This document shows positions 1,469 to 12,913 of a DNA stretch of 64,000 nucleotides, piece after piece (position 1 is the stretch's first letter; each line of letters starts with the position of its first letter). Source of the DNA: Escherichia coli (GTDB lineage Bacteria; Pseudomonadota; Gammaproteobacteria; Enterobacterales; Enterobacteriaceae). Position numbers and translations under genes: made by a program. The DNA lies in the NCBI RefSeq assembly GCF_048403405.1, contig NZ_CP183129.1. One strand, given 5' to 3'. The notes beneath the pieces are model-generated. The model worked only from the letters and a program-made list of their open reading frames with translations, was not told the origin of the DNA and made no database searches.

Positions 1469-3160
1469 ATGAGATACATCAAATCGATTACACAGCAGAA
1501 GCTGAGCTTTTTGCTTGCAATCTATATTGGCCTTTTTATGAATGGCGCGGTTTTTTACCGCCGCTTCGGCAGCTATGCGCACGATTTTACCGTCTGGAAA
1601 GGCATTTCTGCTGTTGTTGAACTGGCCGCCACCGTACTGGTGACCTTCTTTTTACTACGTCTTCTTTCGCTGTTTGGCCGCCGTAGCTGGCGTATTCTGG
1701 CGTCGCTGGTGGTGCTCTTTTCCGCAGGTGCCAGCTATTACATGACCTTCCTTAATGTGGTCATTGGTTATGGCATCATCGCTTCCGTCATGACCACCGA
1801 TATCGACCTGTCAAAAGAAGTTGTTGGTCTGAACTTTATTCTCTGGTTAATCGCCGTTAGCGCATTGCCTCTTATCCTTATCTGGAATAACCGCTGTCGC
1901 TACACCTTGCTCCGACAACTGCGAACCCCAGGGCAGCGTATTCGCAGCCTGGCGGTCGTCGTACTGGCGGGTATTATGGTTTGGGCACCGATTCGTTTGC
2001 TGGATATCCAGCAGAAGAAAGTGGAGAGGGCGACCGGTGTTGATTTGCCCAGCTATGGCGGCGTCGTAGCGAACTCTTATCTGCCATCAAACTGGCTTTC
2101 GGCATTGGGGCTGTATGCCTGGGCGCGGGTCGATGAATCTTCCGATAATAATTCATTGCTTAACCCGGCGAAGAAATTCACTTATCAGGCACCGCAAAAC
2201 GTTGATGACACTTATGTCGTGTTTATCATCGGTGAAACCACGCGTTGGGACCATATGGGCATTTTCGGCTATGAGCGTAATACCACGCCGAAGCTGGCCC
2301 AGGAGAAAAATCTGGCGGCGTTCCGTGGCTATTCTTGTGACACGGCGACCAAACTTTCTCTGCGTTGCATGTTTGTACGAGAGGGTGGGGCGGAAGATAA
2401 TCCGCAGCGCACATTAAAAGAACAGAACATTTTCGCGGTATTGAAGCAGTTAGGATTCAGTTCTGATCTCTACGCTATGCAAAGCGAAATGTGGTTCTAC
2501 AGCAACACGATGGCAGACAACATTGCTTATCGTGAGCAGATTGGTGCGGAGCCACGTAACCGTGGCAAGCCGGTAGATGATATGTTGCTGGTAGACGAAA
2601 TGCAGCAATCGCTGGGGCGCAACCCGGATGGTAAGCATCTGATCATTCTGCATACCAAAGGTTCGCACTTTAACTACACCCAGCGTTACCCGCGCAGCTT
2701 TGCGCAGTGGAAGCCGGAATGTATTGGTGTTGATAGCGGCTGTACCAAAGCGCAGATGATCAACTCCTATGACAACTCGGTGACCTATGTGGATCACTTT
2801 ATCTCCAGCGTGATTGATCAGGTTCGCGATAAGAAAGCGATTGTGTTCTACGCAGCTGACCACGGTGAGTCAATTAATGAACGCGAGCACCTGCACGGCA
2901 CGCCGCGTGAACTGGCACCGCCGGAGCAGTTCCGTGTGCCGATGATGGTCTGGATGTCAGATAAATATCTGGAAAATCCGGTCAATGCGCAAGCATTTGC
3001 GCAGCTGAAAAAAGAAGCCGACATGAAAGTGCCACGCCGTCACGTAGAGCTGTACGACACCATCATGGGTTGTCTTGGCTATACTTCACCGGATGGTGGA
3101 ATTAACGAAAACAACAACTGGTGCCACATCCCGCAGGCAAGAGAGGCGGCGGCTAACTAA
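1469..3160 (+). CDS. eptB: Kdo2-lipid A phosphoethanolamine transferase EptB
   Basis: 563-aa ORF from ATG 1469 ([10 protein letters not shown]...); sulfatase/PEA-transferase family; length matches K-12 EptB. Confidence 0.93.
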
Positions 3161-3251: not shown

Positions 3252-3672
<421 letters not shown>

Positions 3673-6050: not shown

Positions 6051-7070
6051 ATGTTGCAGTTTATTCTCCGACGTTTGGGACTCGTCATCCCCACGTTTAT
6101 CGGTATTACCCTTCTCACATTTGCCTTTGTCCACATGATCCCGGGCGATCCGGTGATGATCATGGCGGGCGAACGTGGGATCTCCCCAGAGCGTCACGCG
6201 CAGCTGCTGGCTGAACTCGGCTTAGATAAACCTATGTGGCAGCAGTATCTCCATTACATTTGGGGCGTAATGCACGGCGATTTAGGCATTTCGATGAAAA
6301 GCCGCATCCCGGTATGGGAAGAGTTCGTGCCGCGCTTTCAGGCCACGCTGGAACTTGGCGTCTGCGCGATGATTTTTGCTACGGCAGTCGGTATTCCGGT
6401 TGGTGTGCTGGCTGCGGTTAAACGCGGTTCCATTTTCGATCACACGGCGGTTGGCCTGGCGCTGACAGGTTATTCAATGCCTATCTTCTGGTGGGGCATG
6501 ATGCTGATCATGCTGGTTTCGGTGCACTGGAACCTGACGCCCGTCTCCGGTCGCGTGAGCGACATGGTGTTCCTCGATGATTCCAATCCGTTAACCGGTT
6601 TTATGCTGATCGACACCGCCATCTGGGGTGAAGACGGTAACTTTATCGATGCCGTCGCCCATATGATCTTGCCCGCCATTGTGCTGGGTACTATCCCGCT
6701 GGCGGTCATTGTGCGTATGACACGCTCCTCGATGCTGGAAGTGCTAGGTGAAGATTATATCCGCACCGCGCGCGCCAAAGGGCTGACCCGCATGCGGGTG
6801 ATTATCGTCCATGCGCTGCGTAACGCGATGCTGCCGGTAGTGACCGTTATCGGCCTCCAGGTGGGAACATTGCTGGCGGGGGCGATTCTGACCGAAACCA
6901 TCTTCTCGTGGCCCGGTCTGGGGCGCTGGTTGATTGACGCACTGCAACGCCGCGACTATCCGGTAGTGCAGGGCGGCGTATTGCTGGTGGCGACGATGAT
7001 TATCCTCGTCAACTTGCTGGTCGATCTGCTGTACGGCGTGGTGAACCCGCGTATTCGTCATAAGAAGTAA
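6051..7070 (+). CDS. dppB: Dipeptide ABC transporter permease DppB
   Basis: 339-aa ORF from ATG 6051 (MLQFILRRLGLV...); the longer upstream extension in the ORF track is not supported. Confidence 0.93.
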   Translation: MLQFILRRLGLVIPTFIGITLLTFAFVHMIPGDPVMIMAGERGISPERHAQLLAELGLDKPMWQQYLHYIWGVMHGDLGISMKSRIPVWEEFVPRFQATLELGVCAMIFATAVGIPVGVLAAVKRGSIFDHTAVGLALTGYSMPIFWWGMMLIMLVSVHWNLTPVSGRVSDMVFLDDSNPLTGFMLIDTAIWGEDGNFIDAVAHMILPAIVLGTIPLAVIVRMTRSSMLEVLGEDYIRTARAKGLTRMRVIIVHALRNAMLPVVTVIGLQVGTLLAGAILTETIFSWPGLGRWLIDALQRRDYPVVQGGVLLVATMIILVNLLVDLLYGVVNPRIRHKK

Positions 7071-10006: not shown

Positions 10007-11278
10007 TTACTCAATCAGCTTCAACAGTGGCGACAAGCATAGCAAAATGCCGTAAAGCAGAATCAGCCAGGCTTTAAATCCGCGAAGTTTTTCCAGTTGT
10101 GCGACTTTATAGATCAGGAAAAACGGAATGAGGCACGACACAATGCCATATAACGGGCTTCCCAACTGAAAGAACACCAGCACCGATACACGAAACGAAA
10201 CCCAAATCGTCAACGTAATGACGATAAAAGCGCAGATCGCCAGAGTCAGCACGCGTGAATTAATTTTCTTGGTATCAATAATTCGGCTTAACAGATTGAG
10301 AATAATGCCTTTAATGGCCTCGTGGAAACCGAGATAAATGCCAAAGAATGCGGTCAGTACGGCAAAGATATTCAGCACCGTAGAGGTGATATGAATGATA
10401 TGCCCAGGGATCACCTGCGCGGCCAGTGCCAGTGCCGAGATATTTTGTTCAAAGGCAGAAACGGCTTCTTCGTGGCTAATTGAGAAGGTAAACGAAAAGG
10501 CAAAAAACAGGATCACCGCAATGAGCGTGATATAACTAATTCGGTGGGTACGCAGCGCGAGCCGGGTTGCCAGTACTTTATCTGCTTCCCGTTTACGATA
10601 GGCAATATTCATTGGGTTAAGTACCTGAATAAATACTGCAGAAAAGAAGCAAAATGGAATGGTAAGCAGGACATCGCGGAAAAAGACGGAGGCTTGCGGG
10701 AAGGCGGTTATATTGGCGAAATTCCAGTGCGGGATCATCGCAAAACCGAACACGACAATAATCCCTACTTTGACCACCACCATTGGCCCGGAAATCTTAA
10801 ACAGTAATCGTTCACCACCAGACGCAATTGCCACCAGTACGGCGAAAATGGCGACTTTATAAAGTAGAGATTGTGAAAGATCGGCATCGGTTAAACCGAA
10901 GGTTTTCAGGTACGAGGCGCTGTCGAAAACCACGGAGAGAGAGTAGATAAAAATCCCGTGGATAATCATCAAAAAGTAGATAACCCCGAGGAAAATTCCC
11001 CAGTTCTTCCCCAGGTAATGACTGATAATATCGGTGTAGTCATTACAGGAATCGCTTTCAGAAAGGGTTTTTAAATAAATGTCCTGCACTACCCAGGTGG
11101 CAGGATAAGCAATGATCGCTGCGGTAATAAATACCCAAATTCCCTTCAAGCCAATTTGTACTGGCATCAGCACGGTTCCGGCACCAATCGCCATGCCTAT
11201 GCATAATAAAACCCAGCCGAAGTCGTAGCGTGTAAACGGCAATTTCTGATCGTGTTTCGGTAGTGTGTTGTGCTGCAT
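10007..11278 (-). CDS. yhjV: Amino acid / HAAAP-family transporter YhjV
   Basis: 423-aa polytopic membrane ORF from ATG at 11278 ([11 protein letters not shown]...). Confidence 0.88.
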
Positions 11279-11753
11279 AAAGTCCTGTCCAGAAAGAAGT
11301 CGGCCTCGCAAAAATGAATAAACCCAGTTTCTCTTGCGCAACAGGTGGAGAAGTCGAATACGCAGTATGTAAAAAATGAGGCAACAGATTCACTGGGGAG
11401 GTCGCGAGTAGGCGCAATTCTACAAAATTGCGCATTTCACTACCAGTCTGGAGTCAGCCCGGATATGAACTGCAACTATTGCAAATAAAGAAATTAAGCT
11501 GGAAGGCATCGCGCAATGAGGAAGATTGCCGGGTGCTGACGGTAAAAAGCAATCGTAGAATCAGCGGCAAGCCGGAAAGGTTCCGGTGAGGCGCAATGTT
11601 GCGGGGGCTTTATCCCTGGTGGCATTGGTTGCTGGAGAGAGAAAACCCCCGCACGTTGCAGGTATGCACCTGACAACATCACGGGGGCCATTCTTGAACC
11701 TACACAACTCAAGAATAGCCGCGAAACGTTGTCATTACAACAGAGGCGGCTAT

Positions 11754-11861
11754 ATGACGCTCGCAGAGCTGGGCATGGCCTTCTGGCACGATTTAGCGGC
11801 TCCGGTCATTGCTGGCATTCTTGCCAGCATGATCGTGAACTGGCTGAACAAGCAGAAGTAA
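11754..11861 (+). CDS. ldr: Ldr-family small toxic peptide (35 aa), copy 1
   Basis: MTLAELGMAFWHDLAAPVIAGILASMIVNWLNKQK; matches Ldr toxin family. Confidence 0.85.
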   Translation: MTLAELGMAFWHDLAAPVIAGILASMIVNWLNKQK

Positions 11862-11911
11862 CGTGTCAGACGGGCGTCAGGCTGCCGTAATGGCAATTTG
11901 CGCCCGGATCA

Positions 11912-11942
11912 GGCCGCAGGGATAAAACTCTGCGGCCTTTTT
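11912..11942 (+). terminator. Rho-independent terminator after ldr copy 1 (ggccgcag...ctgcggcc + T5); repeated after copies 2 and 3 at about 12395-12425 and 12878-12908
   Basis: Perfect 8-bp GC stem followed by T-run, present in every repeat unit. Confidence 0.8.
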
Positions 11943-12236
11943 CGTAAGAAAAATGCAACGGTTGCAAGCGGATAATATTCTGCGGAATGCGCAGCACAGA
12001 GTGAAGAAGTGACGGATTCCGGAACAGAAAAACAGTCGTAGAATCAGCGGCAAGCCGGAAGGGTTCCGGTGAGGCGCAATGTTGCGGGGGCTTAATCCCT
12101 GGTGGCATTGGTTGCTGGAGAGAGAAAACCCCCGCACGTTGCAGGTATGCACCTGACAACACCACGGGGGCCATTCTTGCATCCAAACAATACAAGAATA
12201 GCCGCGAAACGTTGTCATTACAACAGAGGCGGCTAT

Positions 12237-12344
12237 ATGACGCTCGCAGAGCTGGGCATGGCCTTCTGGCATGATTTAGCGGCTCCGGTCATTGCTGGCA
12301 TTCTTGCCAGCATGATCGTGAACTGGCTGAATAAGCGGAAGTAA
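12237..12344 (+). CDS. ldr: Ldr-family small toxic peptide (35 aa), copy 2
   Basis: MTLAELGMAFWHDLAAPVIAGILASMIVNWLNKRK. Confidence 0.85.
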   Translation: MTLAELGMAFWHDLAAPVIAGILASMIVNWLNKRK

Positions 12345-12719
12345 CGTGTCAGACGGGCGTCAGGCTGCCGTAATGGCAATTTGCGCCCGGACCAGGCCGC
12401 AGGGATAAAACTCTGCGGCCTTTTTCGTAAGAAAAATGCAACGGTTGCAAGCGGATAATATTCTGCGGAATGCGCAGCACAGAGTGAAGAAGTGATGGAT
12501 TCCGGAACAGAAAAACAGTCGTAGAATCAGCGGCAAGCCGGAAAGGTTCCGGTGAGGCGCAATGTTGCGGGGGCTTAATCCCTGGTGGCATTGGTTGCTG
12601 GAGAGAGAAAACCCCCGCACGTTGCAGGTATGCACCTGACAACACCACGGGGGCCATTCTTGCATCTAGACCATTCAAGAATAGCCGCGAAACGTTGTCA
12701 TTACAACAGAGGCGGCTAT

Positions 12720-12827
12720 ATGACGCTCGCAGAGCTGGGCATGGCCTTCTGGCATGATTTAGCGGCTCCGGTCATTGCTGGCATTCTTGCCAGCATGATC
12801 GTGAACTGGCTGAACAAGCGGAAGTAA
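12720..12827 (+). CDS. ldr: Ldr-family small toxic peptide (35 aa), copy 3
   Basis: MTLAELGMAFWHDLAAPVIAGILASMIVNWLNKRK. Confidence 0.85.
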   Translation: MTLAELGMAFWHDLAAPVIAGILASMIVNWLNKRK

Positions 12828-12913
12828 CGTGTCATGCGGGCGTCAGGCTGCCGTAATGGCAATTTGCGCCCGGACCAGGCCGCAGGGGTGAAACTCTGCG
12901 GCCTTTTTCGTTC

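Follow-up and report, generated by a model that had tools for sequence, protein, structure and literature searches.

The window analysed here is a stretch of 64,000 nucleotides from Escherichia coli (contig NZ_CP183129.1 of RefSeq assembly GCF_048403405.1), and the element under study is a tandem array of ldr/rdl modules, in each of which a small toxin gene is paired with an antisense RNA, lying between yhjV and bcsG (Table 1). Tandem Repeats Finder reported the segment from 11545 to 12911 as one array of direct units with a period of 483 nt (2.8 copies, 97% matches, no indels), and a repeat search placed three 300-nt copies, starting at 11545, 12028 and 12511, with a mutual identity of 96-97%. 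Together with the flanking genes, both results agree with a preliminary description of this DNA, made from its letters alone, in which three near-identical 483-bp units were proposed at the yhjV-bcsG junction. The organization is that of long direct repeats of about 0.5 kb, each closed by its own terminator; promoter-proximal DNA upstream of 11545 is found only in unit 1, where it matches K-12. We are highly confident that what lies here is an array of three ldr/rdl type I toxin-antitoxin modules of LDR-D type, representing one common allele of an old locus that varies in copy number, with no recent amplification involved. Elements of this kind are known, and the allelic state seen here is a common one.

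Every unit carries an intact open reading frame (ORF) for a 35-residue peptide, which reads MTLAELGMAFWHDLAAPVIAGILASMIVNWLNKQK in copy 1; the sequence shared by the three is MTLAELGMAFWHDLAAPVIAGILASMIVNWLNK(Q/R)K, the glutamine being confined to copy 1. The Pfam family Ldr_toxin (PF13940) covers residues 1-35 of 35, and these hydrophobic peptides display the conserved tryptophan and the basic C-terminus of Ldr toxins. In NCBIfam no Ldr model matched the 35-residue peptides, the NKRK form giving only a weak match to Fst (E=0.039), and the family was settled by Pfam instead. The three peptides differ from LdrD at one or two residues. In K-12, LdrD is toxic on overexpression and is countered by RdlD (PMC4147584); LdrA has been described as a membrane pore-forming toxin (PMC12643268).

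Opposite the 5' untranslated region (5' UTR) of each toxin gene lies a full-length match to the Rfam rdlD family (RF01813; gathering score 50), located 49-114 nt upstream of the ldr start codon and clear of the toxin ORF, so that all three units show the length (~60-66 nt) and position of a cis-encoded antisense RNA. These RNAs are predicted to fold into a long hairpin preceded by 11 nt that stay free as a 5' tail (-30 to -32 kcal/mol, z -3.2 to -4.5), with values of -32.3 kcal/mol and z -4.5, and the same 11 free nucleotides, for Rdl 1. The identification of the units as ldr/rdl type I systems in the preliminary description, as well as its account of the toxins as ending in NKQK in copy 1 and NKRK in copies 2 and 3, is thus borne out by the intact ORFs, the Ldr_toxin match and the three rdlD matches. 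By sequence, each unit would produce an mRNA of ~380 nt with a long structured 5' UTR, running from a -10 box, TAGAAT (in many strains TAAAAT for unit 1), to a strong terminator. The terminators consist of an 11-bp GC-rich stem and a T run after each toxin ORF (three found vs 2.1 expected by chance). They had been called identical, which is true of the stem, GGCCGCAG/CUGCGGCC in all three units, and untrue of the loop, which reads GGUGAAA in copy 3 vs GAUAAAA in the others (two bases), and of one base just upstream at which copy 1 differs.

Table 1. Features of the yhjV-bcsG array, in positions of the window; for features recurring in each unit, equivalents in the other units follow the first coordinates
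Feature	Position	Strand	Remarks
LDR-D unit 1	11545-12027	+	Transcribed core and downstream spacer
LDR-D unit 2	12028-12510	+	
LDR-D unit 3	12511-12911	+	Ends with its terminator; bcsG stop codon next at 12914
ldr toxin coding sequence (CDS) 1	11754-11861	+	35 aa, ends NKQK; WP_000170743.1; Pfam PF13940, E=1.3e-25
ldr toxin CDS 2	12237-12344	+	35 aa, ends NKRK; WP_001295224.1
ldr toxin CDS 3	12720-12827	+	35 aa, ends NKRK; WP_001295224.1
Rdl antisense RNA 1	11640-11705	-	66 nt; Rfam RF01813, 83.8 bits
Rdl antisense RNA 2	12123-12188	-	Rfam RF01813, 81.7 bits
Rdl antisense RNA 3	12606-12671	-	Rfam RF01813, 81.8 bits
Inferred ldr -10 box TAGAAT	11556-11561; 12039-12044, 12522-12527	+	Conserved at the left edge of each unit
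Inferred rdl promoter	11712-11740	-	-35 TTGTAA (11740-11735), 17-nt spacer, -10 TATTCT (11717-11712), transcription start 11705
Candidate leader ORF	11596-11673; 12079-12156, 12562-12639	+	Predicted; 25 aa; Shine-Dalgarno GGUGAGG at 11585-11591
ldr mRNA 5' UTR hairpin	11690-11716; 12173-12199, 12656-12682	+	Stem AUUCUUG/CAAGAAU, loop 11697-11709
Hairpin enclosing the ldr Shine-Dalgarno	11716-11752	+	Predicted; UAGCCGCG...GCGGCUA; Shine-Dalgarno GAGG at 11743-11746
Intrinsic terminator of ldr mRNA 1	11911-11943; 12394-12426, 12877-12909	+	
Inter-unit spacer	11946-12035; repeated at 12429-12518	+	90 nt; absent from K-12; diagnostic of multi-copy LDR-D arrays
yhjV	ends near 11278	-	Flank of the array
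bcsG	12914-14593	-	Other flank of the array

Within arrays, the transcribed core is nearly invariant except for a hot spot of 22 nt (11688-11709). Among the three window units, 7 of these 22 columns differ vs 11 of 350 elsewhere (Fisher p=2e-5), an about ten-fold concentration of differences in a patch that holds a 13-nt cassette, of which the window carries three types: a (AACCTACACAACT), b (CATCCAAACAATA) and c (CATCTAGACCATT). That chromosomal type I loci often degenerate, that copy 1 carries R33Q in its charged C-terminus, and that frameshifted or degenerate units occur in other strains (unit 1 of O104; EC20) could suggest that the extra units are decaying, non-functional relics and that only one module is active. 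All three nevertheless keep the start codon, Shine-Dalgarno, full ORF, Rdl hairpin, inferred promoters and terminator, and their transcribed cores vary at only 3% of columns outside the patch, which makes such decay in the window unlikely.

The records of K-12 MG1655 and DH5alpha contain a single ldrD/rdlD unit between yhjV and bcsG, and ldrA-C/rdlA-C between kdsA and chaA, as the preliminary description had stated. Aligned with K-12 ldrA-D, the three window units are all of LDR-D type, in keeping with their yhjV-bcsG position: they are 82-90% identical to K-12 LDR-D (over aligned windows that include the non-shared flank of each unit) and about 68-71% identical to LDR-A/B/C, and their toxins are 94-97% identical to the LdrD type vs 60% to LdrA. 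The K-12 LDR-D locus has in common with the array its site, the outer flanks (left of unit 1 and right of unit 3), the Rdl hairpin, the leader ORF and the terminator, and the window toxins differ from LdrD by F3L alone, plus R33Q in copy 1. The K-12 locus differs in consisting of one unit, devoid of the 90-nt spacer by which the three window units are joined, and in carrying a further cassette, d, instead of a, b and c. The kdsA-chaA array of K-12 is likewise made of three tandem ldr/rdl units, shares with the window a ~75-nt ultra-conserved stretch of the 5' UTR, and follows the same pattern of variation, LDR-A and LDR-B differing in 5 of 22 patch columns vs 7 of 347 elsewhere; yet it occupies another locus, has a 535-bp period and an unrelated spacer, and encodes toxins 60% identical to those of the window. 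The ~75-nt stretch (11584-11660 and equivalents; GGTGAGGCGCAATGTTGCGGGGGCTT...GAAAACCCCCGCACGTTG) is near-identical between LDR-D and LDR-A/B and more conserved than the toxin ORF, and its CCCCCGC run could pair with an upstream GCGGGGG or a downstream CGGGGG.

Copy number at the locus was surveyed in 5426 complete E. coli genomes. A 101-nt query across the inter-unit spacer had matches in 3304 of them (61%), at 6994 places (1-4 per genome, median 2), and all of the sampled matches inspected lie between yhjV and bcsG. A three-copy query was at least 80% covered in 4470 genomes, four-unit arrays scoring 70%. The estimated distribution is one unit in ~2120 genomes (39%), two in 570 (10%), three in 1780 (33%) and four or more in 955 (18%), with which two samples agree: 29 chromosomal records drawn from the three-copy query (11, 4, 10 and 4 with one, two, three and four units, respectively) and 60 records drawn from the spacer query (7, 31 and 22 with one, two and three spacers). 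Genomes annotated with each number of Ldr CDSs from one to four were found, all at yhjV-bcsG, and the E. coli type strain ATCC 11775 has three units. Copy number at this locus ranges from 1 to 5 units in E. coli. For LDR-like DNA as a whole, an E. coli genome has a median of 5 places (range 1-13); 28 of the places are on plasmids, and the 195-kb plasmid NZ_CP195449.1 of strain H30 bears an annotated Ldr-family toxin at 82% identity.

These figures bear directly on the suggestion, made in the preliminary description, of a local amplification. The single unit of K-12 and the 96-97% identity of the unit cores would both be compatible with a recent duplication of a K-12-like ldrD/rdlD unit in the window strain. 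The spacer joining the units has no counterpart in K-12, however, and shares only 50% identity with the DNA upstream of unit 1; the three units bear three different cassettes, each present in hundreds to thousands of other genomes; two or more units are found in 61% of complete genomes and three in the type strain; and arrays occupy the same site in other genera. The signature of a recent tandem amplification, namely near-identical units with a junction derived from single-copy sequence in one lineage, is not what is seen here. Since the units have different 13-nt cassettes, each of which occurs at other array positions in other strains, they are not recent copies of one another but diverged, old paralogues. 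A recent amplification is accordingly very improbable, and the suggestion was abandoned: three copies at this site, which the preliminary description had said would speak against it if common, are the state of about a third of the 5426 genomes.

Nor is the copy number at all likely to be an artefact of assembly, in which a repeat was collapsed or expanded. Tandem repeats of ~0.5 kb are error-prone in short-read assemblies, but the 3.5 kb around the array match the complete E. coli TUM14771 genome at 100% identity, and there the NCBI Prokaryotic Genome Annotation Pipeline (PGAP) calls three Ldr-family CDSs, and the copy number is therefore no assembly peculiarity of the window; moreover, 11-19 core differences distinguish the units, which makes their assembly unambiguous, and the same 483-bp spacing recurs in the arrays of thousands of complete genomes. 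It is hardly more credible that the minus-strand ORFs of 72-131 aa, open as they are at that length in all three units, are real protein genes, as they have no Pfam or NCBIfam match and no PGAP call in TUM14771, start with TTG, run through terminators and spacers, and have equivalents varying from 49 to 179 aa among units and genera, in a region already accounted for by a conserved RNA on each strand. As had been supposed from the outset, they are artefacts that arise where both strands are conserved for the RNAs they encode.

The history of the array was examined in an alignment of 42 units from 17 E. coli genomes. Phylogroup-related strains form a nested series, with four units in UTAK18 and O104:H4, three in OHT76-1 and two in O111. 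Unit 2 of O111 is the same as its UTAK18 counterpart except at two sites of the terminator loop, where it equals unit 4, and unit 3 of OHT76-1 is a hybrid whose 5' part matches unit 3 and whose 3' part matches unit 4. Hybrid units and nested allele series are the products expected of unequal homologous crossover between units, the process by which, judging from these sequences, copy number shifts. The K-12 unit combines the promoter region of unit 1 with cassette d, which elsewhere belongs to the last unit of b-c-d arrays; the single unit of K-12 is one allele among several. We note that the first ldr gene of O104:H4 C227-11 is frameshifted, and that the 1.1-kb yhjV-bcsG region of E. coli EC20 (NZ_CM169481.1, locus 1969-3073) lacks an annotated Ldr CDS and contains a single LDR core, bearing cassette c, beyond which the sequence is unrelated or degenerate. 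The bcsG gene adjacent to the array is annotated as a pseudogene (internal stop) in WP8-S17-ESBL-08 and EC32, and bcsE is frameshifted in UTAK-18.

The distribution of the locus beyond E. coli was surveyed by scanning one genome per bacterial species for a 19-nt core motif, followed by tblastn with YhjV, BcsG, KdsA, ChaA and Ldr. Units of ldr directly beside bcsG were found in Escherichia whittamii (one) and Escherichia sp. E1V33 (two); in Salmonella enterica subsp. arizonae and diarizonae, Pseudocitrobacter and several Citrobacter (one each); in Klebsiella michiganensis (three), K. spallanzanii (three) and K. oxytoca (two); and in Kluyvera sichuanensis (three) and K. ascorbata (two). The presence of ldr next to bcsG across genera indicates that the site is old and that arrays formed or persisted there in several genera. 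This survey fits an earlier study in which the LdrD and LdrB groups were traced to the enterobacterial ancestor, with lineage-specific duplications (PMC2887945). Five of 51 core-motif matches fell in non-enterobacterial metagenome-assembled genomes, had no Ldr ORF, and were set aside as chance occurrences of a GC-rich 19-mer. Contigs labelled Bacillus sp. EB106-08-02-XG196 (503 bp, coverage 0.66) and Chryseobacterium sp. 18061 contain enterobacterial LDR sequence, the former encoding a 94% LdrD-like peptide, and are probably contamination or mis-binning.

The concentration of differences in the 22-nt patch is a recurrent property of these arrays. It was also seen in five other E. coli arrays and between LDR-A and LDR-B of K-12, as well as in independent arrays of other genera, namely those of K. 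michiganensis (p=1.4e-5), K. spallanzanii (p=9e-4), Kluyvera sichuanensis (p=2e-10) and another enterobacterium (p=3e-5); two of the arrays compared were exceptions, their patches being identical among units. Besides the cassettes of the window and cassette d of K-12, type e was found in O157, and types f, g and h also occur. No cassette was repeated within any of the 13 multi-unit E. coli arrays examined, and over the 5426 genomes duplicates were rare: cassette a was found in 294 genomes (317 places), b in 1717 (1735) and c in 1359 (1383). Units 2 and 3 of the window differ at 11 of 483 positions, four of which lie in the patch and one in the 90-nt spacer, indicating that the patch is far more diverged than the adjacent non-coding DNA. 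Identical 13-mers are common to Escherichia and Klebsiella and to Escherichia and Citrobacter, which argues against simple neutral drift.

The position of the cassette is suggestive of its function. It spans the first nine nucleotides of Rdl and the 4 nt that precede them, and on the opposite strand the 13 hypervariable nucleotides form the loop of the 5' UTR hairpin of the ldr mRNA, a loop complementary to the 5' tail of Rdl. The stem of this hairpin, extended by GGC/GCC in the predicted fold, is supported by covariation: in a set of 54 distinct sequences, drawn from several genera, pairing is kept in 90% of the stem cells, and the 20 double-change cells (5.1 in shuffles) represent a value reached in 0 of 500 shuffles. 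Predicted duplexes between tail and loop have energies of -17.4 to -17.9 kcal/mol for cognate pairs and of -2.5 to -7.7 kcal/mol for non-cognate pairs, with the exception of Rdl-2 on the ldr-3 mRNA (-14.5 kcal/mol, with two G·U pairs). Strong cognate and mostly weak non-cognate pairing in these models suggests that each unit is insulated from the others. We tentatively propose that the 13-nt cassette is an address label directing each Rdl mainly to the mRNA of its own unit, selection having kept a small set of old cassette types in Escherichia, Klebsiella, Citrobacter and Kluyvera while all other parts of the unit were homogenised; this is a possibility to which we give somewhat less than even weight. 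No description of such a label was found in the literature searched, the original LDR papers lying outside it. A second variable spot is present in Klebsiella units, aligned to 11625-11640, with an insertion of ~8 nt such as GAGATGAATT, TAGA-GAGAT or TCGATGGATG; it corresponds to the loop of the upstream GCGGGGG/CCCCCGC hairpin, which shows no variation in E. coli.

From work on K-12 and the structures predicted here, a plausible course of control can be drawn. Rdl would meet the ldr mRNA through its free 11-nt 5' tail, pairing with the 13-nt hairpin loop; the duplex would then extend and be cut by RNase III, leaving the toxin untranslated, and the ldr Shine-Dalgarno may additionally be locked in a local hairpin. 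In K-12 the ldrD-rdlD duplex is cleaved by RNase III in vivo (PMC7373196), and a hok/sok-like control via a leader ORF, ldrX, has been proposed and is unconfirmed (PMC4147584, PMC8167048). All three units, and Escherichia as a whole, contain the candidate leader ORF (25 aa, behind a good Shine-Dalgarno), which is the sole conserved upstream ORF; its start lies 44 nt outside the Rdl target, and its length is 11-80 aa in other genera.

Several points weigh against our reading of the region. The leader ORF ends 80 nt short of the ldr ATG, and Klebsiella units do not preserve its frame; the Rdl target itself lies ~50 nt upstream of the ldr start; and blocking that target leaves the predicted accessibility of the Shine-Dalgarno unchanged, the hairpin enclosing it being predicted either way. 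A strict sigma-70 consensus scan of 11300-13000 returned no promoter at its threshold, so that the promoters given in Table 1 are inferences from conserved hexamers, and the transcription starts assumed for the window strain are likewise deduced from sequence. The copy-number shares reported above are estimates solved from summary counts and systematic samples rather than a per-genome census.

Two further candidate mechanisms were rejected. The first was a switch in which Rdl would release the patch hairpin's 3' half for pairing in an anti-Shine-Dalgarno stem; on folding 11567-11800 with the Rdl target forced open, the unpaired probability of the Shine-Dalgarno stays at 0.37 in all three units. 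The second was an N-terminally extended toxin initiated at the in-frame ATG at 11664, inside the Rdl target, an ATG that LDR-A/B/C and some E. coli units lack.

By architecture, the modules resemble the hok/sok systems of plasmid R1 and of chromosomes, in which a small membrane toxin is likewise encoded behind a long structured 5' UTR and the antisense RNA acts on this region rather than on the toxin ribosome binding site, its 5' tail lying opposite a target loop; reviews indeed class Ldr/Rdl as hok/sok-like (PMC4147584, PMC8594479). They differ in that the Hok toxins are unrelated to Ldr and that, in the window, no leader ORF was found overlapping the ldr start. The ldr 5' UTRs (11603-11756, 12086-12239 and 12569-12722, plus strand) give full-length, sub-threshold matches to the Rfam sok family (RF01794; 29-31 bits vs a gathering score of 59, E about 1e-3), an observation that echoes the report, in the T1TAdb paper, that some Ldr loci class as Hok/Sok by RNA features (PMC8594479). 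The ibs/sib and zor/orz systems, like the window array, consist of tandem paralogous toxin/antisense pairs in one intergenic region, and in both of them short variable antisense regions have been found by experiment to restrict the antitoxin to its cognate mRNA (PMC2943612, PMC3919570); their toxin families and overlap geometry are different, and the discrimination described here for Ldr/Rdl is a predicted one. By analogy with Sok, Sib/Ibs and Orz/Zor, the cassette may give each unit an antitoxin specificity of its own.

The array of the window represents ordinary strain-to-strain variation at a known toxin-antitoxin locus, and cautions that K-12 is unrepresentative, most E. coli having two to four ldrD-type units at this position. 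Annotation is affected, since the Rdl RNAs are unannotated in RefSeq records, as are type I toxin deletion studies and read mapping, on which the multi-unit state also bears. If confirmed, the role proposed for the patch would extend cognate discrimination of the Sib/Ibs and Orz/Zor kind to Ldr/Rdl, identify what serves as the recognition element in a system with a mechanism still called unconfirmed, and offer a natural set of orthogonal antisense/target pairs. Other RNAs identified by the Rfam scan of the whole window are the small RNAs (sRNAs) GadY (48571-48684, minus strand, 150 bits) and ES205 (54462-54533, minus strand, 105 bits), and a tRNA (3252-3325, plus strand) followed by tandem RtT elements at 3363-3496 and 3529-3664 (plus strand; 101 and 99 bits, respectively).

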